Below, one piece after another: positions 10,821 through 50,544 of a DNA stretch of 64,000 nucleotides; the first letter of the stretch is position 1; each line of letters starts with the position of its first letter. A program made the translations under genes and the position numbers. The DNA is from Shigella phage vB_SdyM_006. The stretch lies in sequence record MK295204, one strand, 5' to 3'. The notes below the pieces were generated by a model. That model saw nothing but the letters and a program-made list of their open reading frames with translations. It was not told the DNA's origin and did no database searches.

Positions 10821-11156
10821 TTATACCTCAAACAATCGTATTTTAAGACTAGTTGTATATTTGATTTCTAAATTATAAACTTTACCACTATAAACAACAA
10901 GAATTTTATTTGGGTTTTCTTCACACCACATTATATTATCGTCATTAATAATGTTTAAAAATTCTAGCTCTGAATAACAAGCCCACGAGAATGATTTACT
11001 TAAAAACTCTTTTAAATCAAGCCAATCGGTTTCGTCACAAATAGCAGGACTCATAACAGCAAGTTTGTGGGTATATGTTTCTTTATCACACCAACGAGTA
11101 AAAAACACTTCACGTTTTTCTTCTAAAGGAATAACACCAGCAGTATACCAAGACAT
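10821..11156 (-). CDS. hypothetical protein (paralogue of next gene)
   Basis: C-terminal NKILVVYSGKVYNLEIKYT aligns with NSILVLYIGESTQLEVKFT of 11166..11450. Confidence 0.4.
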   Translation of the reverse strand: MSWYTAGVIPLEEKREVFFTRWCDKETYTHKLAVMSPAICDETDWLDLKEFLSKSFSWACYSELEFLNIINDDNIMWCEENPNKILVVYSGKVYNLEIKYTTSLKIRLFEV

Positions 11157-11165
11157 AATAATTCC

Positions 11166-11450
11166 TTATTTGATTGGGATGATTCTAAATTTGTATTCAC
11201 CGCCACGAGTAAATTTAACTTCTAACTGAGTTGATTCACCAATGTAAAGAACCAAAATTGAATTTTTATTAGAACGTAACCAGTCTTGATATTCTTCAAA
11301 AGACTTGCGTAAAGATGGGATGCTATTTTTATATCGGCCTAAAATAGTCCATGAGAATTCACCACTGCCCATCCATTTAGTGGAACGGTCATATTTTAAA
11401 AGGTTTTCAATATCAATATTTAACCATGTTTTAAAGTTTTCTTTAATCAT
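11166..11450 (-). CDS. hypothetical protein (paralogue of previous gene)
   Basis: 94 aa; shared C-terminal motif with 10821..11156. Confidence 0.4.
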   Translation of the reverse strand: MIKENFKTWLNIDIENLLKYDRSTKWMGSGEFSWTILGRYKNSIPSLRKSFEEYQDWLRSNKNSILVLYIGESTQLEVKFTRGGEYKFRIIPIK

Positions 11451-11650
11451 TTTCTTACCTTCATTCGTTTACGATAAACTACTTTTTCGCGAGTTTTAAA
11501 TTCCTTCTGTTTTTGTTCAACTTCAATATAAACAGAAGCCATTTCTTTAGCTGTTCCACCCATTTTTCTGGCTATATCAACAAAGTGCATACCTTGTTGT
11601 TTAAGAAAGTGGATTTTTATTTTATCATGATTTGTCATTATTTTCTTCAA
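11447..11650 (-). CDS. hypothetical small basic protein
   Basis: 67 aa ORF; 4-nt overlap with downstream gene. Confidence 0.35.
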   Translation of the reverse strand: MKKIMTNHDKIKIHFLKQQGMHFVDIARKMGGTAKEMASVYIEVEQKQKEFKTREKVVYRKRMKVRK

Positions 11651-12656: not shown

Positions 12657-12854
12657 TTATTTTACCTCAATAATAGTGAGTTCAGTATCTTCTGTCAAAT
12701 CACAAAAGTCAAAAGCCAATGCAGCAATACCTGGGTATTCTGATTCGTCAATAATACATTCAGTATTATTATTTTTGATGTCTAAGGCTAATTGATAATT
12801 AGACGTAGTAAATCCAAGTTCAAGTTCTTCGCACCATACGGTATACTTTTTCAT
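12657..12854 (-). CDS. small protein, tandem paralogue A
   Basis: 65 aa; aligns along its length with 12855..13049 (VWCEE, GF-T--YQLA, C-terminal IEVK). Confidence 0.45.
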   Translation of the reverse strand: MKKYTVWCEELELGFTTSNYQLALDIKNNNTECIIDESEYPGIAALAFDFCDLTEDTELTIIEVK

Positions 12855-13049
12855 TTATTTTACCTCAATGAGTTCACAATCGTATAAACAACTACACAGT
12901 TCACAAAAAGAATAAGCCGATGCATATGAATCAGTGTCTATCCAAAACCCAAGATTATCAATAGCACCTTTACGAACTTCATAAGCAAGTTGATAATCAA
13001 CTGTTTCAAATCCAATTTTCTTTTCTTCGCACCATACTATATATTTCAT
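12855..13049 (-). CDS. small protein, tandem paralogue B
   Basis: 64 aa; paralogue of 12657..12854. Confidence 0.45.
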   Translation of the reverse strand: MKYIVWCEEKKIGFETVDYQLAYEVRKGAIDNLGFWIDTDSYASAYSFCELCSCLYDCELIEVK

Positions 13050-13894
13050 GAGTATTCCTTGTCATAATAAGAATCTGGAGTAAAAATATTTAACATATTT
13101 GTAGAATTATCAATAGTAATAATATTTTCCTGTTCAACTTCAGGTGTATAATATTTTAAAAACTCTTCTTTAACGTATTTTACTGGATCACTTTTATAAT
13201 CGTCAGTAGAAATATCAAATAATTCAATTGTATACGTATCAAGCCATTTTTCAGAACATGTTAATCGTCCACATAATAATCCATCATAAACGATAGCATA
13301 TTCAATATGGCCCCATTTATATGAGCTATCAGCGTCGTGTCTGATTAGATAAAACTTAATATCAGAATTCTCACAATCATCACTAATATTGTCACGAACA
13401 TCGTATTCATTGAGCTCGGTCAATTCACTTAAAGCATTAATAAACAGGTTTTTATATTGAGGGCCAGTTACTAACTTATCTTCTGTTAGTTCTTTCTCAA
13501 TAAATTCTTTTAAAGTTAAAACTGGCAATTCATACTTAGGAAATAATGCAGTTTCAGTAATAGTGCCGATATTCAATTCGGCCAATTTCTTAATAACAGA
13601 ATCTTCAGCTTTATCAGAATCAGTCCAAATATGAAGAACTTTAAAATTATGATTATTCCAAATTTTTTGTGGGTCAACATCAATCACATCTTGGGTTTTA
13701 GACAAAAACATTAAAAGGTAATCAGAATCATTCCACCCTACTGGGTTTTCGTATTTTTGAATGACTAGATATTGGAAATCAGTCATTAATGCATTATATC
13801 TTTCTTTAGAAGCTAAAGAAGTAGAATCCATAGATGAAGAAAAAGCTTCAATAACACTAGCTGGGTTTTTAATTAACATTTTGAATAGTCCCAT
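13046..13894 (-). CDS. hypothetical protein
   Basis: 282 aa ORF, no recognisable motif. Confidence 0.5.
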   Translation of the reverse strand: MGLFKMLIKNPASVIEAFSSSMDSTSLASKERYNALMTDFQYLVIQKYENPVGWNDSDYLLMFLSKTQDVIDVDPQKIWNNHNFKVLHIWTDSDKAEDSVIKKLAELNIGTITETALFPKYELPVLTLKEFIEKELTEDKLVTGPQYKNLFINALSELTELNEYDVRDNISDDCENSDIKFYLIRHDADSSYKWGHIEYAIVYDGLLCGRLTCSEKWLDTYTIELFDISTDDYKSDPVKYVKEEFLKYYTPEVEQENIITIDNSTNMLNIFTPDSYYDKEYS

Positions 13895-28563: not shown

Positions 28564-28773
28564 TTATTCACCAATTTCTTCTAAGAAATTCTCATAATCA
28601 GTTGGGAATCTTTTCCAAAACTTTTTAATTTTTTGTTCTTTATTCTTGCATTCTGCCAATGAAATCATTAAACCGTTATCAGAATCAGATTCAACTCGTG
28701 TTAATGTTAAACCTAATTCAGAAAGTGCTGTTAAGTGATTTTGTGCCAATACATATAAATATAAATCAAACAT
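28564..28773 (-). CDS. hypothetical early protein (cassette-driven)
   Basis: Start placed at ATG after GGAGTATATT within the conserved early promoter-leader cassette; 69 aa. Confidence 0.45.
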   Translation of the reverse strand: MFDLYLYVLAQNHLTALSELGLTLTRVESDSDNGLMISLAECKNKEQKIKKFWKRFPTDYENFLEEIGE

Positions 28774-28813
28774 AATATACTCCGTTGTTTCCGTGTGTTG
28801 TTTCAATATGTAT

Positions 28814-28842
28814 ATAATAACATGTCTACAGCAAAAGTAAAC
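28814..28842 (-). promoter_or_regulatory. early promoter (GTTTAC-N17-TATTAT), cassette copy
   Basis: Minus-strand GTTTAC (plus 28837-28842), 17-nt spacer, TATTAT (plus 28814-28819). Confidence 0.6.
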
Positions 28843-28861
28843 ATGTTATTGTGGCTTTTTA

Positions 28862-29098
28862 TTAAATAATTCTAGCTATCAATGCAGAAGTATTAATACT
28901 AACAGTAAATTCCATTGGCGTTTCATCTTCTTCAGAACTAATTACCATTGAATGGATTTCGGTAACACCAGATACGGATAAAACTCTATCTTCAATAATA
29001 GTTATATGTGAAGAATATTCAAAAGGACCATATGGGTCTCCATCTAATCTAGATGTATCTTTAAGCATTTTTAACAATTCAGCACTTGATAATTTCAT
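28862..29098 (-). CDS. hypothetical early protein (cassette-driven)
   Basis: Start placed at ATG after GGAGTATATA in the second copy of the cassette; 78 aa. Confidence 0.45.
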   Translation of the reverse strand: MKLSSAELLKMLKDTSRLDGDPYGPFEYSSHITIIEDRVLSVSGVTEIHSMVISSEEDETPMEFTVSINTSALIARII

Positions 29099-29135
29099 TA
29101 TATACTCCATTTTCGTATGTTGTTTCAATATGTAT

Positions 29136-29164
29136 ATAATAACATGTCTACAGCAAAAGTAAAC
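29136..29164 (-). promoter_or_regulatory. early promoter (GTTTAC-N17-TATTAT), cassette copy
   Basis: Minus-strand GTTTAC (plus 29159-29164), 17-nt spacer, TATTAT (plus 29136-29141); directly follows a terminator hairpin. Confidence 0.6.
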
Positions 29165-29185
29165 AAAAAAGAGCCTTTCGGCTCT
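29165..29185 (-). terminator. hairpin terminator upstream of cassette promoter
   Basis: GAGCC-TTTC-GGCTC followed on minus strand by TTTTTT then GTTTAC. Confidence 0.6.
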
Positions 29186-29387
29186 AAATAATTTTTGATA
29201 AATCATCTTGTATTGCTAAGATTTTATGAAAATCTGATTCTCTTATAGGACAAGACTTATCTAACTTAAATGATATTAAAGAATTCATAAAGATAGATTC
29301 TATTTGTTCTTCTAAATCATCTATTAAAATATTCTTCTGGTGATTGTCCAAAGATTTCATAAAAGTCATTTGCCTCTTGTTTATCAA
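29184..29387 (-). CDS. hypothetical small ORF overlapping ligase 3' end
   Basis: 67 aa ORF; overlaps the ligase gene by at least 44 nt in another frame, so doubtful. Confidence 0.2.
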   Translation of the reverse strand: MINKRQMTFMKSLDNHQKNILIDDLEEQIESIFMNSLISFKLDKSCPIRESDFHKILAIQDDLSKII

Positions 29388-30789
29388 GACGTCTCATTTT
29401 AACACGTGGTAAAAATAAACTATATGTTTCTCGTCCATCAACTTTTTGAGCTGCATTACATACACCCGAGATAATCATACCGACAAGTTTACCTTTCTTA
29501 TGAAGATCCCATAATAAACGACGGTCTAATTCATGACGTTTATCGAGTGGAATCCAGATTTTTTCTTTTGAACCTTTTACCTTTTCGTAATCTTTATCCT
29601 TAAAACCAGAACCACAGTCAACTAAAATAGTCCCATCTCTAGACCTTAAATTGACACCACCTAATTTTTCAGGGTCTTTAGAATGTGGATACGCACCAAT
29701 AATTTCTAAATCAAAATCTTTTTCTTCTTTAAATTTTACTTGGTCACAAGTACGTCCATCAGACCAAACACCAAGTTTATTTTTTAGAATAATACCTTCT
29801 AACTTCATATCAACATATTTTCTGTAAATAACTTGGGCTTCTTCTAAAGTCTTAACTTCTTCTGATGGAATTAATTCTAAACGTCCTGCTTTTTTAGTAA
29901 TTAATTCTAAATTTTTTAACCTTTCTTTGTAAGGTTTATTAATTTCTGAATTATCAGTCTGTGTACCTTGTGTAACTTCATAGTTAATTAGATCCCAGAC
30001 CTGGAATTTAACACAATCTGCTTCGGTTTTTGAAATGGTTCCTTGGATTGATTTATTTGCAATACCGTTACCTTCTTCTCTAGAAGCAACAATATTTTCT
30101 TCTTCGTCTTCATCAAAGAATAAATCTAGACCTTGTTTTGTTGATTTAGGAAAATAAACTAGTTCACCATCAAGAACAACGTTTCCTAATCCTTCAGTGA
30201 TAGATACAATTTCTTCTTTTAGCAAATCTAGACCAAGATATTCGCTACCAGAACGAGAATATAAATTAACTTCCCCGTCTACAACTTCGGCAAAACATCT
30301 AGCACCATCTGCTTTAAGCTGAGCTAATGCTGGGAATTTAATTTTAGATACATTAGCTTTACTAAAAGGCGCTGCTAAAAACTGCGGCTGCTTTGGTAAT
30401 AAATTTTCCCATACTTTGTTTGGAATACTTCTTCCTACACCACATTCCAAGTCACGTTTGACAATGCGTTTAATTAATGCTGCATCTTTAGGGCATAAAC
30501 TTTCTAATACATCTTTTAAAGCAGCAATTGCAGCATGTCCTGTTAAAACCCGTTCACCTAAAACATTTTCTAAAAAATCTAAAGCGTCACGAAGTGTTTT
30601 AGATTCGGTTTTAGGTTCATATTCTGGAATCTTTTTAATATGGAATTTGACTCTTTGAGAATATGTTAATCTAAACACATCTTTTACTAATAAATTGTTT
30701 TTATATTTTAAAAGAATATTTTCTTTTTCTTTTAATGAATCCGTAGAAGCTAGTTCTACAATAATATCGTATACCATACCTTTTTCCAT
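29317..30789 (-). CDS. 30: ATP-dependent DNA ligase
   Basis: 490 aa vs 487 in T4; adenylation motif FPALAQLKADGARCFAEV, plus RDLECG and GLEGIILKN blocks. Confidence 0.93.
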   Translation of the reverse strand: MEKGMVYDIIVELASTDSLKEKENILLKYKNNLLVKDVFRLTYSQRVKFHIKKIPEYEPKTESKTLRDALDFLENVLGERVLTGHAAIAALKDVLESLCPKDAALIKRIVKRDLECGVGRSIPNKVWENLLPKQPQFLAAPFSKANVSKIKFPALAQLKADGARCFAEVVDGEVNLYSRSGSEYLGLDLLKEEIVSITEGLGNVVLDGELVYFPKSTKQGLDLFFDEDEEENIVASREEGNGIANKSIQGTISKTEADCVKFQVWDLINYEVTQGTQTDNSEINKPYKERLKNLELITKKAGRLELIPSEEVKTLEEAQVIYRKYVDMKLEGIILKNKLGVWSDGRTCDQVKFKEEKDFDLEIIGAYPHSKDPEKLGGVNLRSRDGTILVDCGSGFKDKDYEKVKGSKEKIWIPLDKRHELDRRLLWDLHKKGKLVGMIISGVCNAAQKVDGRETYSLFLPRVKMRRLDKQEANDFYEIFGQSPEEYFNR

Positions 30790-30798
30790 TTATAGTCC

Positions 30799-31434
30799 TT
30801 ATTTTATACTATTTAATGATTCTTCTAAGTCTGGTAAAATGGATTCAAAATCATACCAGTCTTTAACATTGATAATAGGACAATCTGGCAAATCACGTTG
30901 TCCACGTGGCATATGAATCAAAGGTAGTCTCGAAATAACTTTATGACAATCTTCAAGATTATGAGCCAAATCATCAACAAAACATAAAAGATTTTTAGTG
31001 TGTTTAACTTTAACATCTAAATAATGAGGAGTTTTAGATTCACCATAATTCACAAGTAAAATATCACTAAATGCATTAGGAAATAAAGAATTCAAATTAT
31101 ATAACCGATTAAACAATGCCTGGTTAGTAGTTCCTAAAGCTGTGATAGCAACAAATTCATACTTATGTTTAAGCCTATTAATGACTTCAATGGCATCAGT
31201 ATATCCAGTTAGATACTTAATATATTTTGAGTTATTGTATTCCGTCATTAATTTTAAGCCAAGTTCTTCATTACAACGGAACATTTCGCCTGGCGACATA
31301 AAAACATTTTCTGTGATAACTCTTAAAATATTTGATGTATCAATACCATAATCTTGTGCAAAATAAGGAAGTCCAGATGCCCACTGGACTAAAATGCCAT
31401 CAACGTCAGTTAAAATAACAGGTTTTACTTGCAT
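30799..31434 (-). CDS. HAD-superfamily phosphatase, nucleotidase-like
   Basis: N-terminal HAD motif I VILTDVDGILV; 211 aa. Confidence 0.55.
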   Translation of the reverse strand: MQVKPVILTDVDGILVQWASGLPYFAQDYGIDTSNILRVITENVFMSPGEMFRCNEELGLKLMTEYNNSKYIKYLTGYTDAIEVINRLKHKYEFVAITALGTTNQALFNRLYNLNSLFPNAFSDILLVNYGESKTPHYLDVKVKHTKNLLCFVDDLAHNLEDCHKVISRLPLIHMPRGQRDLPDCPIINVKDWYDFESILPDLEESLNSIK

Positions 31435-31877
31435 TATGCATCCTCATATTTAATTGCCATAAGAGCCTTTTTAGTGAATTCGTAGATGTCAATATTTTTA
31501 ACACCTTGGCTTAAAATAGATTCCACTGTTTTATCAAGAACTGGCTTAATAAAAGGTCCTTGAAGATTCATTGTTCCAGTTCTATCTTTAAATGCGATAA
31601 CGAATTTACGATCGACCCAATTATTTTTGGGTTCAAGATTTTCTATTTTTTCAAAATAACCATGTTCATCAACGTCAATAATAAACGCTACTGTAAAATC
31701 GTCTTCGGTTAAAGTTTCGTCACCACATTTAAGTTTTTTGACATGTCCACTTTCGTCAAGTTCAATAACTTTAAATGGGCTATTTGAGATAGCATTAGCA
31801 ATACGTTCATTAGAATAATTTTCATCAACAAATCCGTCAATGTCAATTAATTTATACCAACCATTTAATTCAAACAT
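31434..31877 (-). CDS. hypothetical protein (paralogue of next gene)
   Basis: 147 aa; shares Y-x-LI, YS-x-E-I and NPFKV-x-L motifs with 31885..32337. Confidence 0.45.
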   Translation of the reverse strand: MFELNGWYKLIDIDGFVDENYSNERIANAISNSPFKVIELDESGHVKKLKCGDETLTEDDFTVAFIIDVDEHGYFEKIENLEPKNNWVDRKFVIAFKDRTGTMNLQGPFIKPVLDKTVESILSQGVKNIDIYEFTKKALMAIKYEDA

Positions 31878-31884
31878 AGTATTC

Positions 31885-32337
31885 TCACTTAAAAGTAATA
31901 GATTGGGTGATTTCAGCAGTTTTATCTAAAGTATACATTTCAACTTTACCAGTAGGATTTTTTGTTAAAAATGCTTCGATACTTTTATGTGCTGATTCTT
32001 CATCTAGAGGAACTGAAGAAGTTTCTACACCGTTTAAAATTTGGACTAAAACTACACGGGCTGACGGGACTACAACTTCATTAAAATACTCCACTTCATA
32101 TTTAGAAATCACCACTGTTAATTGAGAGTCAAAATCAGAAGGTGTGTATTCTTTTCCGTTAATTGAAATTAAAACAACATCACGATTGCCAGGCCCAAGA
32201 GCTAAAACTTTAAAAGGATTTTTCCCAATAAGGTTATAAATTTTTTCATTATATGCCGAGTACTCTTTAAACTCGTGTTCATTGATAAGTTGATAAGATT
32301 TACCGATTTCAAATTCAAAAGCTGTTTTAGTTTTCAT
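31885..32337 (-). CDS. hypothetical protein (paralogue of previous gene)
   Basis: 150 aa; paralogue of 31434..31877. Confidence 0.45.
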   Translation of the reverse strand: MKTKTAFEFEIGKSYQLINEHEFKEYSAYNEKIYNLIGKNPFKVLALGPGNRDVVLISINGKEYTPSDFDSQLTVVISKYEVEYFNEVVVPSARVVLVQILNGVETSSVPLDEESAHKSIEAFLTKNPTGKVEMYTLDKTAEITQSITFK

Positions 32338-32338
32338 A

Positions 32339-32659
32339 TTAGGACCTTATTTTTAAGATTGTTTTCATTGCAGCAACTAATGGTTTTTTATCCTCAACCC
32401 AGTCATCACAACATAAATTTTCATTATCGAAATTATTGTATCTAGAACCTAGACAATGTAAACCGATAAATGTATCATTTGATGTTTTTGTTACACTGAT
32501 ATCATGGTCTAACATTAAGACCCAAGCTTGATTAATATTATTACATGGATCAAATTTTAAGCCATTAATATAAACAAATAACTTAAACCCTTGGTTTTCT
32601 ACTGTGTATTCATACCCAAGACTTTTAGCTAGTTCAATATTAATATCAAGTTCAGTCAT
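32339..32659 (-). CDS. hypothetical protein
   Basis: 106 aa ORF with FDPCNN motif; 4-nt overlap with upstream NADAR-like gene. Confidence 0.45.
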   Translation of the reverse strand: MTELDINIELAKSLGYEYTVENQGFKLFVYINGLKFDPCNNINQAWVLMLDHDISVTKTSNDTFIGLHCLGSRYNNFDNENLCCDDWVEDKKPLVAAMKTILKIRS

Positions 32660-33093
32660 AACCGTCTCCTTAAAGATGTCAATATACCACAGAATTCTTG
32701 GTTTGTTAATATAGTTTCGAACTTATTTTCGCATCCTATAGTATGAACTAATGTTTTATCGCCTGTTGCTCTCAGAGCATCTCTGAATGATTTATTCTGA
32801 TTAAACATATGAATATATGCTCTGACTAGTAAACGTTTGTAGGCTTCACTGTGACGATTAATAGGGCATCCATTATACCACATAGTGTCATTTTTCATTT
32901 TAGGACCAGCTAATTTGGCCTTTAATCCATGCAGTTTAAACACTTCAGATTGTTCTTTAGGGTCTTTAATTTTTAATCCTTGTAAAAATCCTTCTATACT
33001 GCCAAAGAGCTGATTGTCCATTTTAAAAGGATGCTCAGCAAAATTACTTAAAGCACATGAAGGCCAAGGGCCTCTAGAATGAATATCAATCAT
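32656..33093 (-). CDS. NADAR-like (YbiA-type) putative ADP-ribose glycohydrolase
   Basis: 145 aa; LSNFAEHPFKMDNQLFGSIEGFLQGLKI aligns with the YbiA core FSNFA-x-PI-x-DG-x3-TSEHYFQAQKF. Confidence 0.55.
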   Translation of the reverse strand: MIDIHSRGPWPSCALSNFAEHPFKMDNQLFGSIEGFLQGLKIKDPKEQSEVFKLHGLKAKLAGPKMKNDTMWYNGCPINRHSEAYKRLLVRAYIHMFNQNKSFRDALRATGDKTLVHTIGCENKFETILTNQEFCGILTSLRRRL

Positions 33094-33107
33094 ATATCCT
33101 CTAAACC

Positions 33108-33130
33108 AAAAAAGGAGACCGGAGTCTCCT
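33108..33130 (-). terminator. hairpin terminator 20 nt upstream of NADAR-like gene start
   Basis: AGGAGAC-CGGA-GTCTCCT with T-run on minus strand. Confidence 0.55.
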
Positions 33131-33137
33131 TAATCAT

Positions 33138-33374
33138 TTATAGTGTCACCAAATCCAAGATACGCTCTATTTGGTCAATAATTGCTTTGCCAGAGTCATT
33201 ATCGTAAACAAACTTTGTTAATGCTATATTTCTTATAGTAGTTGTTTTTGCTAATTCTTTAAGATCGTTATTAAAGAAATAAAGTGCGTCGGCTTCATTG
33301 TCGAAATACTTATTATAAACCTTTTTTTCTTTAACAATTCTGTATACTAAATTATATTGAGTTGATGTTGACAT
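33138..33374 (-). CDS. hypothetical early protein
   Basis: 78 aa; early promoter upstream, hairpin terminator downstream. Confidence 0.45.
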   Translation of the reverse strand: MSTSTQYNLVYRIVKEKKVYNKYFDNEADALYFFNNDLKELAKTTTIRNIALTKFVYDNDSGKAIIDQIERILDLVTL

Positions 33375-33402
33375 TTTAGACCTCCGTTATTAATTGTGAT
33401 CT

Positions 33403-33432
33403 ATAATATCCTTTTTTAAAAGAGAAGTAAAC
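33403..33432 (-). promoter_or_regulatory. early promoter (GTTTAC-N18-TATTAT)
   Basis: Minus-strand GTTTAC (plus 33427-33432) and TATTAT (plus 33403-33408) upstream of gene 33138..33374. Confidence 0.45.
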
Positions 33433-33450
33433 ACTTATTTTCAATAAAAC

Positions 33451-33474
33451 CAAAAAAGGAGACCGAAGTCTCCT
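33451..33474 (-). terminator. hairpin terminator (AGGAGAC-CGAA-GTCTCCT family)
   Basis: Same stem as 28528 copy; T-run on minus strand. Confidence 0.6.
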
Positions 33475-33479
33475 TAAAT

Positions 33480-33614
33480 TTATTTCTTGTTTCCTAAATT
33501 AGCTAAAAACTTAGCTCGCCCATTTTCTTGTCGTTTAACAAATCCAACCAGTTTGTCTAGGTCTTGGTTAATACGTTTATTTGTTTTTCGTTTGTAACCT
33601 TTACGTGCGGACAT
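33480..33614 (-). CDS. small basic protein, 44 aa
   Basis: My own translation: MSARKGYKRKTNKRINQDLDKLVGFVKRQENGRAKFLANLGNKK; below ORF-track cutoff. Confidence 0.3.
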   Translation of the reverse strand: MSARKGYKRKTNKRINQDLDKLVGFVKRQENGRAKFLANLGNKK

Positions 33615-33623
33615 AGTAATTCC

Positions 33624-33869
33624 TTATTTCAATGTAACAATATAATGACGAACAGCTTTACGTGCATTAGAACTTAAATGCTTAGCATATTTTAAATTAT
33701 CATTTTCGATAAGCTCTTGGTGAAGATTTTTTTGTTCTGGATTTAAGTGTTTAAAACCTTCAAGAACTTTAAGTGCTTCAGCCAGAACATCGATTGATGC
33801 ACCATAGTTTTCATGGCCATTTTGGAAAGAATTACGTTGGATATCTAAAATTGTTTTTACAAAAGTCAT
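33624..33869 (-). CDS. hypothetical protein
   Basis: 81 aa ORF upstream of gene 31 region. Confidence 0.4.
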   Translation of the reverse strand: MTFVKTILDIQRNSFQNGHENYGASIDVLAEALKVLEGFKHLNPEQKNLHQELIENDNLKYAKHLSSNARKAVRHYIVTLK

Positions 33870-33900
33870 AGATGCCTCAAAAATGCGAGGTTAATATTTA

Positions 33901-33917
33901 GTGGTCATAATGACCAC
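33901..33917. promoter_or_regulatory. 17-bp perfect palindrome GTGGTCAT-A-ATGACCAC
   Basis: Exact palindrome in the intergenic region downstream of gene 31; no adjacent T-run. Confidence 0.3.
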
Positions 33918-33942
33918 CGGTTTAGAACACATGTTCATATAG

Positions 33943-34260
33943 TTATTTATACACTGCTGCAATAGATTTATAATGAGCAGTAATAAATTTTATTGGGAAT
34001 TCACTAGCTTTTTTATCATTAAAAACAGTTTCTGGATGAGGAACATTACGCATGTTACCTGTAGGTAAAGGGACCTTATCACCGATCTCAAAATAACCTT
34101 GAGGAACACAATCACCAATGGCATAAATTTCACCATATTGTGGTAATTCACCTTGTTGACGAACACCAATAACAATACCTGAAGCCGAAACTTCTTCGGT
34201 CCCAGCTGATTCTGCTTTTGCTGCTATAATAACGCTTTCACCTAATGCTTTAATATCCAT
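33943..34260 (-). CDS. 31: head assembly co-chaperonin (GroES-like)
   Basis: 105 aa vs 111 in T4; GNMRNVPHP and FITAHYKSIAAVYK align with T4 gp31 (IRNVPHP, FVTCHYKAIPCLYK). Confidence 0.85.
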   Translation of the reverse strand: MDIKALGESVIIAAKAESAGTEEVSASGIVIGVRQQGELPQYGEIYAIGDCVPQGYFEIGDKVPLPTGNMRNVPHPETVFNDKKASEFPIKFITAHYKSIAAVYK

Positions 34261-38533: not shown

Positions 38534-39247
38534 TCATTTTAATTCCTGCTCAATTTTGTCAATGATTGCATAAATTTCATGTTTAACTGGAGTAACGGTT
38601 TTACCTGATTTTTTAAACAACTTAGAAGCTTCTTCAGGATTTGTTTTATACAATTTTTTAGCTTCTTCTTTGATGATAGTGGCTTCTTCAACTGCAGACA
38701 TAAGTTCTTTAAGCTTTTTACGAAGATCTTCGATATCATTATTACATGGAACAAAATCTTTTTCTAAAATCATAAAACGATGCCATTGAGTAACAGAAAT
38801 TGGGTCAGTTAATTTAAAATCTGATATTTCTGTTTTACCAGGAATAATGATATCATTATCAGTCTCAGCAACTTTGACTACAACATGAGTCACTTTGTCA
38901 TCTTCAATAGTTGGAATAAACCGAGGTCTTAAATCAGGATTTGCCTTTTTAGTAGAATGCAAAGAAGCAAATCGTTTAAACCGAGTATCTGTAATACTAT
39001 GGACAAACGAAGCATCATTAAGCATATATACGTTCTGGTCATCTTCAAGAATGTGCACATCACCTGGGAGATGTAACATATATCCTGACGATGAAGCAGG
39101 GCTAGAATTGAAACCTGGTAAATGATTAACTTCAGAATAATCGATCTTAAAAAGACCATCAGATCTTCGTGTTGCATTGACAGTAATAGGGAACACAATA
39201 CCTGCCATGCTTGCAAAACCATTATGGCTTGTTAATTTAATTTTCAT
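38534..39247 (-). CDS. hypothetical protein (shares N-terminal motif with next gene)
   Basis: 237 aa; N-terminal F-x-S-x2-GI-x-FPI-x-V-x-AT motif shared with 39250..39471. Confidence 0.5.
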   Translation of the reverse strand: MKIKLTSHNGFASMAGIVFPITVNATRRSDGLFKIDYSEVNHLPGFNSSPASSSGYMLHLPGDVHILEDDQNVYMLNDASFVHSITDTRFKRFASLHSTKKANPDLRPRFIPTIEDDKVTHVVVKVAETDNDIIIPGKTEISDFKLTDPISVTQWHRFMILEKDFVPCNNDIEDLRKKLKELMSAVEEATIIKEEAKKLYKTNPEEASKLFKKSGKTVTPVKHEIYAIIDKIEQELK

Positions 39248-39249
39248 AA

Positions 39250-39471
39250 TTATTCCTCTATAACTGAAAACTCACGTGGTGTAAAATAATAAGAATCTGT
39301 TGATGCGGATTTGTCAAATCCTTTTAATTTAATGAACTGAGATTGGGCAACGTTGATACAAGCGCTGTTATCACAATCAGGTGTAGCATAGACTTCAATA
39401 GGAAACTGAATACCTTCTAAAGAAGTAAACCTGCCATCACATAATATTTTTACTTTTATCATAATTTTCAC
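39250..39471 (-). CDS. hypothetical protein (paralogous N-terminal motif)
   Basis: 73 aa. Confidence 0.4.
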   Translation of the reverse strand: MKIMIKVKILCDGRFTSLEGIQFPIEVYATPDCDNSACINVAQSQFIKLKGFDKSASTDSYYFTPREFSVIEE

Positions 39472-39745
39472 ACTTAGGTTCGTTTAAGTCAACACGGTAA
39501 TAACATACCATAGTTTTCATTTGTTGTAAATATCTTTTTACATCTTCAAGCCAAATTCTTAAATCTTGAGAGTCTTTATAAGATAAAGCAACTTGTGGGC
39601 CGTCTTTATTAATGACTTTCCATTTTACATCTAATGGCTGAACAGGAGCTGGCCATTGTGGATGGATTTTAGGCACTTCCTGTGGTGCAGGAACAACGCT
39701 ATTGCACCCGGTTAATAACATAATAGGAATTATCAGATGTTTCAT
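39437..39745 (-). CDS. o-spanin (outer-membrane lipoprotein)
   Basis: Signal peptide ending in lipobox LLTGC, proline-rich N-terminal region; overlaps i-spanin gene by 4 nt. Confidence 0.7.
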   Translation of the reverse strand: MKHLIIPIMLLTGCNSVVPAPQEVPKIHPQWPAPVQPLDVKWKVINKDGPQVALSYKDSQDLRIWLEDVKRYLQQMKTMVCYYRVDLNEPKCENYDKSKNIM

Positions 39746-47995: not shown

Positions 47996-48285
47996 TTATT
48001 ATCACTCACGTACACCAATTGTTTAAAAGATAGTTTAAGCTGTTCTATAGATACTTTAGAATCCGCTGTAACGAATTCTAATTCACCCATTCCTAGCATT
48101 TTACCATCAACCCAAAGTTCAATACATGTCATGTCCCACCAATTTTTTCTAGAATTCAAGAAATCTCTAACTTGTTCTAAGTTAGAGAAAACTCCTGCGT
48201 TTCTAGAGGATTCACACATATTATGGTCAACAACAATAAGTATCTTCGACATTTTTATCCACCAAAACAAAATAAATTTGCTCAC
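47980..48285 (-). CDS. hypothetical protein
   Basis: 101 aa ORF overlapping td start by 16 nt. Confidence 0.4.
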
Positions 48286-48634
48286 CTTGTTTAATAAAAT
48301 ATCCGTAGATTTTTACTTCAGTATCTTTAACTTTAACATACCCTTCAGAAACGGCTTTTGTTATGTCAAATAGTGTAGTACGAATATAAACCAAGCCATC
48401 TTTAGTTCTAATAGATGTACATGATGAATTTATATTTGAGCCAAGTTCTTTTATATCACAAGAAATCTCATAAATACCATGGTGTAATTCTCGTTCTTGA
48501 CAATTTCTATAATTAGATTTAAAAGTTTTTAAAGAAATAGAATCTAAAAAGAATGTTCTTGAAGGAGGCGCTTTAACTAATTTCCATGAGCACATTGGTT
48601 GTACAAACTTTTTATACAATTTAATTTCAGCCAT
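48227..48634 (-). CDS. hypothetical protein, tandem paralogue A
   Basis: 135 aa; shares W-x-LV-x-AP, FF-x-D, HG(I/V)YE and SEG motifs with 48627..49028. Confidence 0.45.
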   Translation of the reverse strand: MAEIKLYKKFVQPMCSWKLVKAPPSRTFFLDSISLKTFKSNYRNCQERELHHGIYEISCDIKELGSNINSSCTSIRTKDGLVYIRTTLFDITKAVSEGYVKVKDTEVKIYGYFIKQGEQIYFVLVDKNVEDTYCC

Positions 48635-49028
48635 TATTCAAGTCCTCATTTATTAAAGGATAAAGACAAATAATACGGCCATTTTTTCTAAAGATACCTT
48701 TAACTGTAATTAAGTTATTTTCAATTTTAGTATGTCCTTCAGAAATAGATTTAAAAAGACGACATAAACATGTGTCCATTTTAACAGCTCGTTTATCTGT
48801 GATATCTGAATTTGTCAAATATAAATCGTGTCCATTACCGCCATATTCTCTATCAATTTTATAATTTTTTAATTCGTAGACACCATGCGGCATAACATCA
48901 ACATGTTCTTTTCGTATTAAAGATTTATACCCATCGATAGTAAGGTCTTTAAAGAATAAGAAATGTTCTTTAGGTGCTTCTACAAGAACCCAATTATTTT
49001 GTTCTTCAAATCTGTGAATTAGTTGCAT
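48627..49028 (-). CDS. hypothetical protein, tandem paralogue B
   Basis: 133 aa; paralogue of 48227..48634. Confidence 0.45.
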   Translation of the reverse strand: MQLIHRFEEQNNWVLVEAPKEHFLFFKDLTIDGYKSLIRKEHVDVMPHGVYELKNYKIDREYGGNGHDLYLTNSDITDKRAVKMDTCLCRLFKSISEGHTKIENNLITVKGIFRKNGRIICLYPLINEDLNNG

Positions 49029-50040: not shown

Positions 50041-50544
50041 TCACATTTTTACCAAAGTTTCTTTTAAAAATTCATATGCACTGATGAAGTCTTTTTCTTC
50101 AGTATATCCAAGTTCAGGTATTTCAATAGAAGGGTCTTTAAATCTAGCTTCAAGAGTTTTTATCATTTTCTTGACACCTTTTTTATCTAAAAATACCGCT
50201 TTACCTGGTGTATATAAATTCGCAGAATACACTTTATGCTTAGTGGGCCCATCTACAATCTTACCTTCATCTAAAGGTTCTAAAAACTGTATTGTAAATT
50301 GAGTAAACAAATAAGGTGTAATAACCCATGGAACAAATACACCATCAACACAGAGTCGATAACAAGATTGATTAATTCGTTTAAGCCCAAATTCAACATC
50401 CCATTTACTAAAATCATTATTTGTAATATAATTAGCAATTTGAGTATTTTGAACTCCATTTTTAGCATTAATGAATTTATTAAAATCTTCTTTAGATTTA
50501 AATTTGTACCGACATACGTTTTTAAGGTTTTTAGGCTGTTTCAT
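50041..50544 (-). CDS. hypothetical early protein
   Basis: 167 aa; preceded by GTTTAC-N17-TATTAT early promoter and SD GAGG. Confidence 0.5.
   Translation of the reverse strand: MKQPKNLKNVCRYKFKSKEDFNKFINAKNGVQNTQIANYITNNDFSKWDVEFGLKRINQSCYRLCVDGVFVPWVITPYLFTQFTIQFLEPLDEGKIVDGPTKHKVYSANLYTPGKAVFLDKKGVKKMIKTLEARFKDPSIEIPELGYTEEKDFISAYEFLKETLVKM

Follow-up and report, generated by a model that had tools for sequence, protein, structure and literature searches.

Genes A and B between 30.2 and 30.3 of a T4-like Proteus-group phage: tandem members of the GoF/Frd.2/MotB.1 family in an array of variable copy number

Two adjacent genes, here called A and B, lie between the gene 30.2-like gene and the gp30.3/NADAR gene in a 64,000-nucleotide (nt) stretch of Shigella phage vB_SdyM_006 (record MK295204), and this whole stretch is referred to below as the window. 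The locus raises the question of whether the two genes are copies of one another and, if so, how old the duplication is and what such genes do for the phage. A preliminary description, made from the sequence alone, had called them tandem paralogues lying beside the NADAR gene and one case of repeated local duplication of accessory genes. Both open reading frames (ORFs) were borne out to the nucleotide, and the gp30.3/NADAR gene does lie upstream of them, with one ORF of 106 amino acids (aa) in between. Taken as a whole, the locus is best explained by anciently diverged tandem paralogues of the GoF/Frd.2/MotB.1 family that form a variable array and may have an RNA-related role, an explanation which we consider probable. 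The two genes are as follows.

31434..31877, minus strand: gene A, 147 aa, isoelectric point (pI) 4.7, the A-type (distal) array copy (ORF list, phrog_3710, AlphaFold2)
31885..32337, minus strand: gene B, 150 aa, pI 5.1, the B-type (proximal) array copy (ORF list, phrog_3710, AlphaFold2)

The region around A and B showed 98-99% DNA identity to Proteus phages SJ_PmiM and phiP4-3 and, counted over the conserved parts of the region, ~86% identity to phages PM2 and Pm5461. All four are members of Bragavirus (Straboviridae), and by its sequence the window phage belongs to the same genus of T4-like phages, the Proteus phage group, with A and B placed in the ligase-to-cd prereplicative block.

Homology, fold and family of A and B

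We compared A and B by several independent routes. In BLASTP the two proteins showed 41% identity across 39 N-terminal residues (E=1e-6), the N-terminus alone being aligned, and in a phmmer search of the 419 six-frame ORFs of the window each was the only match of the other (E ~2e-5). Both matched phrog_3710 significantly at full length (A, E=2.1e-29; B, E=9.8e-38), and Pm5461_193 was similar over its full length to A (33% over 150 aa, E=8e-22) as well as to B (28% over 144 aa, E=2e-13). A hidden Markov model (HMM) of the family, run over the window, found A and B only, and AlphaFold2 gave the two proteins a single two-domain fold with the same order of secondary-structure elements. Together, the BLASTP and phmmer matches, the shared phrog_3710, the bridging Pm5461 homologues and the identical predicted element order indicate that A and B are paralogues over their full length. 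That two unrelated ORFs merely look alike by chance or through the composition of an AT-rich genome can be dismissed: the direct BLASTP alignment indeed spans just 39 residues, but this reading is refuted by the common PHROG at E<1e-29, the transitive full-length homologues, the identical predicted folds and the specificity of the family HMM for these two ORFs of the window.

The shared motifs first described turned out to be approximately right: Y-x-L-I and PFKV(I/L)-x-L are common to both proteins, while small register errors occurred elsewhere, the middle motif reading in register Y-x-N-E-(R/K)-I instead of YS-x-E-(R/K)-I, and the N of NPFKV being shifted by one residue in A (NSPFKV). The search for homologues in other phages was also fruitful, since phrog_3710 proteins are found in the Bragavirus relatives and in many Straboviridae. 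A was 100% identical in amino acid sequence in phiP4-3 and SJ_PmiM, and B was 98.7-100% identical in the same two phages. A word-indexed search of a 5.8-billion-protein set returned only near-identical sequences for A or B and was uninformative. Neither protein matched any profile in Pfam (E up to 1), that of FeoA included, or in NCBIfam or PADLOC, and a sequence-profile search of the PDB gave nothing significant (top match 4qxz_A, E=0.016).

AlphaFold2 models built on a 55-sequence alignment, which are predictions and not solved structures, were of high confidence (mean predicted local distance difference test [pLDDT] score of 91.6 for A and 91.4 for B). In both, the predicted order of elements was β-α-α-β-β-β-α-β, a linker, and β-β-α-β; the linker of A (aa 81-90) was of low confidence (pLDDT 60). 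The predicted domains are listed below.

31638..31877, minus strand: N-terminal domain of A (~aa 1-80), an SH3/LSm-like β-barrel with a two-helix insert (AlphaFold2; homology to the N-terminal domains of T4 GoF and Frd.2)
31437..31607, minus strand: C-terminal domain of A (~aa 91-147), a small β-β-α-β unit (AlphaFold2)
32068..32337, minus strand: N-terminal domain of B (~aa 1-90), the same barrel as in A (AlphaFold2)
31888..32058, minus strand: C-terminal domain of B (~aa 94-150), β-β-α-β with a conserved FL-x-x-NP-x-GKV-x-x-Y motif (AlphaFold2, alignment)

The nearest solved folds to the barrel in the PDB were the SH3-like domains of FeoA and, at the C-terminus, of DtxR/IdeR. The family shares a small bent five-stranded antiparallel β-barrel with the Hfq/Sm (LSm) RNA chaperones, a likeness proposed by Kim et al., who did not obtain confident multimer models of GoF (PMC12152347). 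Our structure and profile comparisons did not place the barrel in the Sm fold of the Hfq/Sm superfamily.

Cross-matches to PHROG families labelled "goF mRNA metabolism modulator" pointed to T4 GoF. This link runs through weaker matches only: phrog_3710, which is matched by A, B and all 55 full-length relatives, is without a function label in PHROG, and its relatives are phrog_622, 5804, 5347 and 13003/2980 ("goF mRNA metabolism modulator"). Direct BLASTP comparison with T4 GoF gave E=5e-8 for Pm5461_193 and E=6e-6 for A. A profile of ten family members, run against 1.84 billion representative proteins, collected 135 representatives at E up to 1e-3, among them P0062, which is 65% identical to T4 GoF (E=4e-7). 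As positive controls, an HMM of the N-terminal domain made from these 135 representatives recovered T4 GoF (1e-19), Frd.2 (2e-19) and MotB.1 (1e-8), and in hhalign the 55-sequence profile matched T4 GoF with 98.0% probability (E=2e-13) and T4 Frd.2 with 97.2% (E=3e-11). On these comparisons A and B are members of the GoF/Frd.2/MotB.1 family of T4-like phages, described as an "LSm-like fold" family in which a five-stranded barrel at the N-terminus is joined through a flexible linker to a C-terminal domain that varies (Kim et al. 2025, PMC12152347). Full-length two-domain relatives, all uncharacterised, occurred in phages of Edwardsiella, Enterobacter, Pectobacterium, Salmonella, Aeromonas, Yersinia, Klebsiella and Acinetobacter; many Straboviridae carry them, as do a few other large myoviruses. 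Two or three N-terminal domains per polypeptide were present in 24 of the 135 representatives, so duplication is a recurring habit of the GoF-type N-terminal domain.

The likeness to T4 GoF (ComC-alpha, 141 aa) extends beyond the homologous barrel of ~90 aa (hhalign 98%). GoF and A/B share the two most conserved motifs of the family, F-x6-N-x2-I and E-x3-F-x-E-V, an acidic protein with a barrel-linker-C-terminal layout, the same fold neighbours in the PDB (FeoA and IdeR), and a place among the prereplicative accessory genes of T4-like phages. The C-terminus of GoF (IEDF-TEFPVMKVTIE) aligns with the α-β motif of the array-family C-terminal domain, but GoF carries an acidic linker in place of the β-hairpin, while A and B have the full β-β-α-β unit. 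The loci also differ, since A and B lie between 30.2 and 30.3 and T4 goF lies between cef and gene 39; in phiP4-3 the cef-to-gene-39 region gave no match to the GoF HMM at E up to 1, with 50-125 kb outside the scan. In addition, genes of the A/B type stand in a tandem array of 2-5, and B has Tyr at the position equivalent to GoF D25. This equivalent is Glu19 in A, which is wild-type-like, and Tyr26 in B, the residue of the gain-of-function mutant; the mapping is reasonably secure because no gap falls between the invariant Phe and the invariant Asn. The equivalent of GoF G84 in A is G73.

T4 Frd.2 (128 aa; hhalign 97%) was the best T4 scorer against the full-length family HMM (E=6e-13, HMM positions 3-116), but it differs from the A/B array in being a single copy, located upstream of frd, whose C-terminal part is shorter. 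The homologue shared by Morganella phage MP1 (gp11) and Providencia phage (PSTRCR_127), of 233-234 aa, belongs to the same family, its N-terminal domain being 38% identical to that of B; here two N-terminal domains are fused before one C-terminal domain, so that the duplication is intragenic, not intergenic, and the gene lies between dexA and cef, unlike A/B.

Two further loci are of note with respect to the family. On the minus strand of the window (50041-50544), two genes upstream of frd and with a 116-aa ORF between, a 167-aa ORF weakly matched the GoF-type N-terminal domain (phrog_2980, E=1.3e-4; N-terminal-domain HMM, E=1.4e-4). It lies in the region that holds frd.1-frd.3 in T4, showed no BLAST similarity to T4 Frd.2, and may be a third, very divergent family member. 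In phage MP1 (L005, 4961-7042), four consecutive ORFs, gp09 to gp06, occupy the interval from cef to gene 39; gp08, gp07 and gp06 have similar N-termini (MxxVxFKSxE...), and gp08 gave a weak two-repeat match to the GoF N-terminal-domain HMM. These four may be another array of this superfamily, more divergent and placed at the canonical goF locus.

Age of the duplication and recombination in the array

We then determined how far the two copies have diverged. No similarity between A and B was found at the DNA level (best blastn match 10 nt, E=0.29), and the protein identity was ~24%. In a neighbour-joining tree with bootstrap, A grouped with Pm5461_193 and the third copy of L012, a 35-kb metagenomic contig (bootstrap 73), and B grouped with Pm5461_194 and the first L012 copy (bootstrap 66); the A-type and B-type copies were positionally conserved across Bragavirus. 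Since the two types group separately in the tree, the duplication is, as judged from these sequences, ancient and older than the diversification of Bragavirus. The local duplication claimed at the outset is thus real but needs refining, the lack of DNA similarity, the low protein identity and the separate clades showing it to be ancient and not recent. A recent local duplication in this very genome, for which one could cite that the two neighbours match in size and orientation and lie 7 nt apart, is extremely improbable, being refuted by the divergence in DNA and protein and by the presence of both types in the same order in Pm5461, PM2 and the metagenomic relative.

The copies were much more variable than their surroundings. 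The syntenic pairs were 33% (A and Pm5461_193) and 41.5% (B and Pm5461_194) identical, while the flanking proteins of the window and Pm5461 were 95.7% (30.2-like), 88.8% (ligase), 76.6% (NADAR), 96% (rIII) and 93% (cd) identical; summarised, this is 33-42% for the syntenic copies as against 77-100% for the flanks. By this measure the pair is a hypervariable island inside conserved flanks, which could reflect either fast gene evolution or cassette exchange among family members. Among near-identical phages, 7 synonymous and 2 non-synonymous differences were counted, numbers too small for a ratio of the two substitution rates; A and its SJ_PmiM copy differed by three synonymous and no non-synonymous changes.

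In T4, genes 30.2 and 30.3 are adjacent, and the array is therefore an insertion relative to T4. Its copy number varied: two copies in the window, phiP4-3, Pm5461 and PM2, three in SJ_PmiM and L012, and five in Providencia phage PSTCR6. The pair, correctly described as tandem, is thus one state of an array with 2, 3 or 5 copies. The comparison of the window with the 99% identical SJ_PmiM revealed a 640-bp insertion/deletion carrying the third copy (SJ_105) and a 53-aa ORF. Two segments of the window mark the sites of exchange.

31847..31884, minus strand: 38-nt recombination junction, comprising the intergenic ribosome-binding site (RBS) region and ATGTTTGAATTA..., the start of A (overlapping blastn alignments, self-repeat)
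31912..31962, minus strand: 51-nt segment conserved in the 3' part of B (codons for NPTGKVEMYTLDKTAEI), to which the 3' end of SJ_105 is 86% identical

The 38-nt direct repeat occurs twice in SJ_PmiM (82% identity), at the starts of SJ_105 and A, where it bounds the 640-bp segment, and the window retains a single copy of it. A different product was found in metagenome contig L011, where the body of B and the tail of SJ_105 form a hybrid gene (protein P0001), with the 53-aa ORF next and A after it; the crossover of this hybrid lies at the 3' ends, within the 51-nt repeat of 86% identity. That genomes so nearly identical carry two different products of recombination shows, at the sequence level, that the array changes its copy number when copies recombine homologously through their short conserved ends. 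As to direction, two independent deletions from a three-copy state would be the most parsimonious course. In the scheme that we favour, the array is inserted between 30.2 and 30.3 within the same-strand block running from 30.3 to DNA ligase, copies are gained and lost through the short conserved 5' ends (RBS plus MFEL...) and 3' ends (NPxGKVxxYxLDKTA) of neighbours, and they diverge far faster than the flanking genes. Plastic accessory regions of such kind are expected in T4-like genomes, and the finding, although correct and explained at the family level, is a modest one, ordinary for T4-like phages.

Possible roles of the array proteins

The question of what the proteins do was approached through GoF. 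Suppressor mutations in T4 goF are D25Y and G84R, the two residues lie on one face of the GoF barrel, and GoF(D25Y) stabilises the mRNA of gene 41 at the post-transcriptional level, which wild-type GoF does not; GoF itself is abundant early in infection and non-essential (PMC12152347). In our alignment the D25 and G84 positions fall within F-x6-N-x2-I and E-x3-F-x-E-V. The location of these positions in the two most conserved motifs and on one barrel face, with E19 in A and Y26 in B, is what favours a role of A and B as prereplicative modulators of mRNA fate or host takeover acting via the conserved face, a mechanism in which our confidence is low. Each gene would give a small acidic two-domain protein (an ~85-aa SH3/LSm-like barrel, a short linker and an ~55-aa β-β-α-β domain) made before replication; the conserved face may bind RNA or a host RNA-handling factor, such binding would adjust mRNA fate or host takeover, and different copies might be tuned to different targets or hosts. 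In a search for MotA boxes upstream of the genes, no full pattern match was obtained, the sole TGCTT core of the region lying inside the 30.3 gene. One candidate for early expression was found by a motif scan.

32435..32462, minus strand: candidate T4-early-type promoter (GTTTACA, 16 nt, TACAAT), ~95 nt upstream of B, within the 106-aa ORF

Several observations weigh against this role. Promoter-like sites were no commoner in the region than in shuffled sequence, which bears on the early timing. The N-terminal domains have pI values of 4.3 (A) and 5.1 (B) and the proteins are acidic as well, so that neither the proteins nor their barrels favour general RNA binding. The C-terminal domain gave only weak matches to generic small α/β folds (Z <=5.3). 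[quoted passage not shown]

The acidity of the barrels (pI 4.3-5.1) could also speak for protein-binding adaptors or decoys that neutralise variable host proteins, targets of defence or takeover, as an arms-race cassette set with no RNA handling. The absence of similarity to Hfq, the kinship of the fold to SH3, Tudor and FeoA-like domains, and a locus that is hypervariable and variable in copy number all fit such a reading, which we nevertheless think doubtful, as no partner is known and GoF pull-downs yielded essentially GoF alone, PADLOC, NCBIfam and Pfam gave no match, and mRNA stability is the sole known phenotype of any family member.

A bolder version of the modulator role, in our view unlikely, is that the array is a diversifying set of GoF-barrel cassettes, some copies of which naturally hold the activity that T4 GoF gains by D25Y. 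Tyr at the D25-equivalent position was found in B and in PSTCR6_147. If this were true, some copies would be natural mRNA-stabilising or anti-RNase/anti-Rho factors and others host-specific variants, and recombinational gain and loss of copies would tune host range in Morganellaceae phages.

Least probable among the functional readings is that A and B are dispensable, decaying filler of a hyperplastic region, without a selected function. The T4 family members are non-essential in the laboratory and copies are readily lost, as filler would be; such decay is hard to reconcile with the intact reading frames in every relative, the confident folded models on a conserved core, the mostly synonymous differences (7 vs 2, very small counts) and the presence of the family across many Straboviridae genera.

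What is new here is not the family, which has been known since 2025, but its members A and B, the two-domain subfamily (phrog_3710), the locus and the recombining tandem array; arrays, paralogues and Proteus phages are not mentioned by Kim et al. (PMC12152347). Two "hypothetical proteins" thereby gain a family, which now also takes in a two-domain subfamily from phages of Proteus, Providencia and Morganella, and the junction sequences show how arrays of accessory genes grow and shrink. Of relevance to the GoF gain-of-function idea is the natural variation between Asp/Glu and Tyr at the D25-equivalent position.

Flanking genes and other tandem pairs of the window

The order of genes on the minus strand is gp31 co-chaperonin, rIII, a 44-aa ORF, a 78-aa ORF, gp30.3/NADAR, the 106-aa ORF, B, A, a 211-aa protein and DNA ligase. 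The immediate neighbours are the following.

32656..33093, minus strand: gp30.3/NADAR-like gene, 145 aa, the upstream flank (Pfam Phage_30_3, E=1.2e-42; NADAR, E=1e-5)
32339..32659, minus strand: 106-aa ORF, the upstream neighbour of B (phrog_444; weak P22 NinX-like match)
30799..31434, minus strand: 211-aa conserved protein in the gene 30.2 position, with a DVDG motif near the N-terminus (phrog_420, E=2e-63)
29317-30789, minus strand: DNA ligase, downstream of the 211-aa protein

The ATG of B directly adjoins the stop of the 106-aa ORF, the spacer from B to A is 7 nt, and at the end of A the sequence TAATG combines its stop with the start codon of the 30.2-like gene that follows. Such tight packing suggests co-transcription and possibly coupled translation. 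The 211-aa protein starts with MQVKPVILTDVDGILV and had no Pfam match; its DxDG motif presumably resembles that of HAD phosphatases. Its positional counterpart in T4, gp30.2, is the longer of the two, with 278 aa. In the window, phiP4-3 and SJ_PmiM the 106-aa ORF separates B from gp30.3. Pm5461 lacks it at that place and has, on the upstream side of gp30.3, a 163-aa ORF (L002, 6507-6998), the C-terminal part of which is weakly like the array C-terminal domain (with PSTCR6_134, E=0.001).

Near-identical GC-rich hairpins, AAGGAGAC-(T/C)(T/C)CG-GTCTCCTT followed by a T-run, lie on the minus strand at 33456-33475 and 33112-33131, where they flank the 78-aa ORF (33138-33374); the second ends ~19 nt ahead of the gp30.3 start. 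Between 29.0 and 34.5 kb, 11 terminator-like sites were observed, against 2.0 expected from shuffles. In the relatives, a gene for DAHP synthase (phospho-2-dehydro-3-deoxyheptonate aldolase), an auxiliary metabolic gene, is annotated just past cd (phiP4-3, 33007-33969), and by synteny with phiP4-3 its place in the window is ~35.7-36.7 kb; T4 is without it here, its cd-pseT interval holding only cd.1-cd.5.

An all-against-all scan of the window upheld the view that local duplication of accessory genes is repeated in this genome, and of the two other pairs first proposed one was the clearer. The pair 38537-39271 and 39253-39483 (minus strand) was supported (E=1.4e-6, both members matching phrog_20482 and phrog_13367), the short ORF (39253-39483) resembling a duplicate of the N-terminal part of its long neighbour (38537-39271). 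For 10824-11165 and 11169-11468 (minus strand) the similarity was weakly supported (E=9e-4, with reciprocal PHROG cross-matches of ~2.5e-5). Three further pairs, all on the minus strand, were found in the scan. The ORFs at 48227-48634 and 48627-49028 (135 and 133 aa) are 29% identical (E=1.6e-9), both match phrog_1928, and they sit between frd and td, which in T4 are adjacent and overlapping. Those at 12660-12854 and 12858-13061 (65 and 68 aa) both match phrog_21221 and are 42% identical, and those at 28567-28845 and 28865-29215 have in common a 24-aa stretch that is 87.5% identical.
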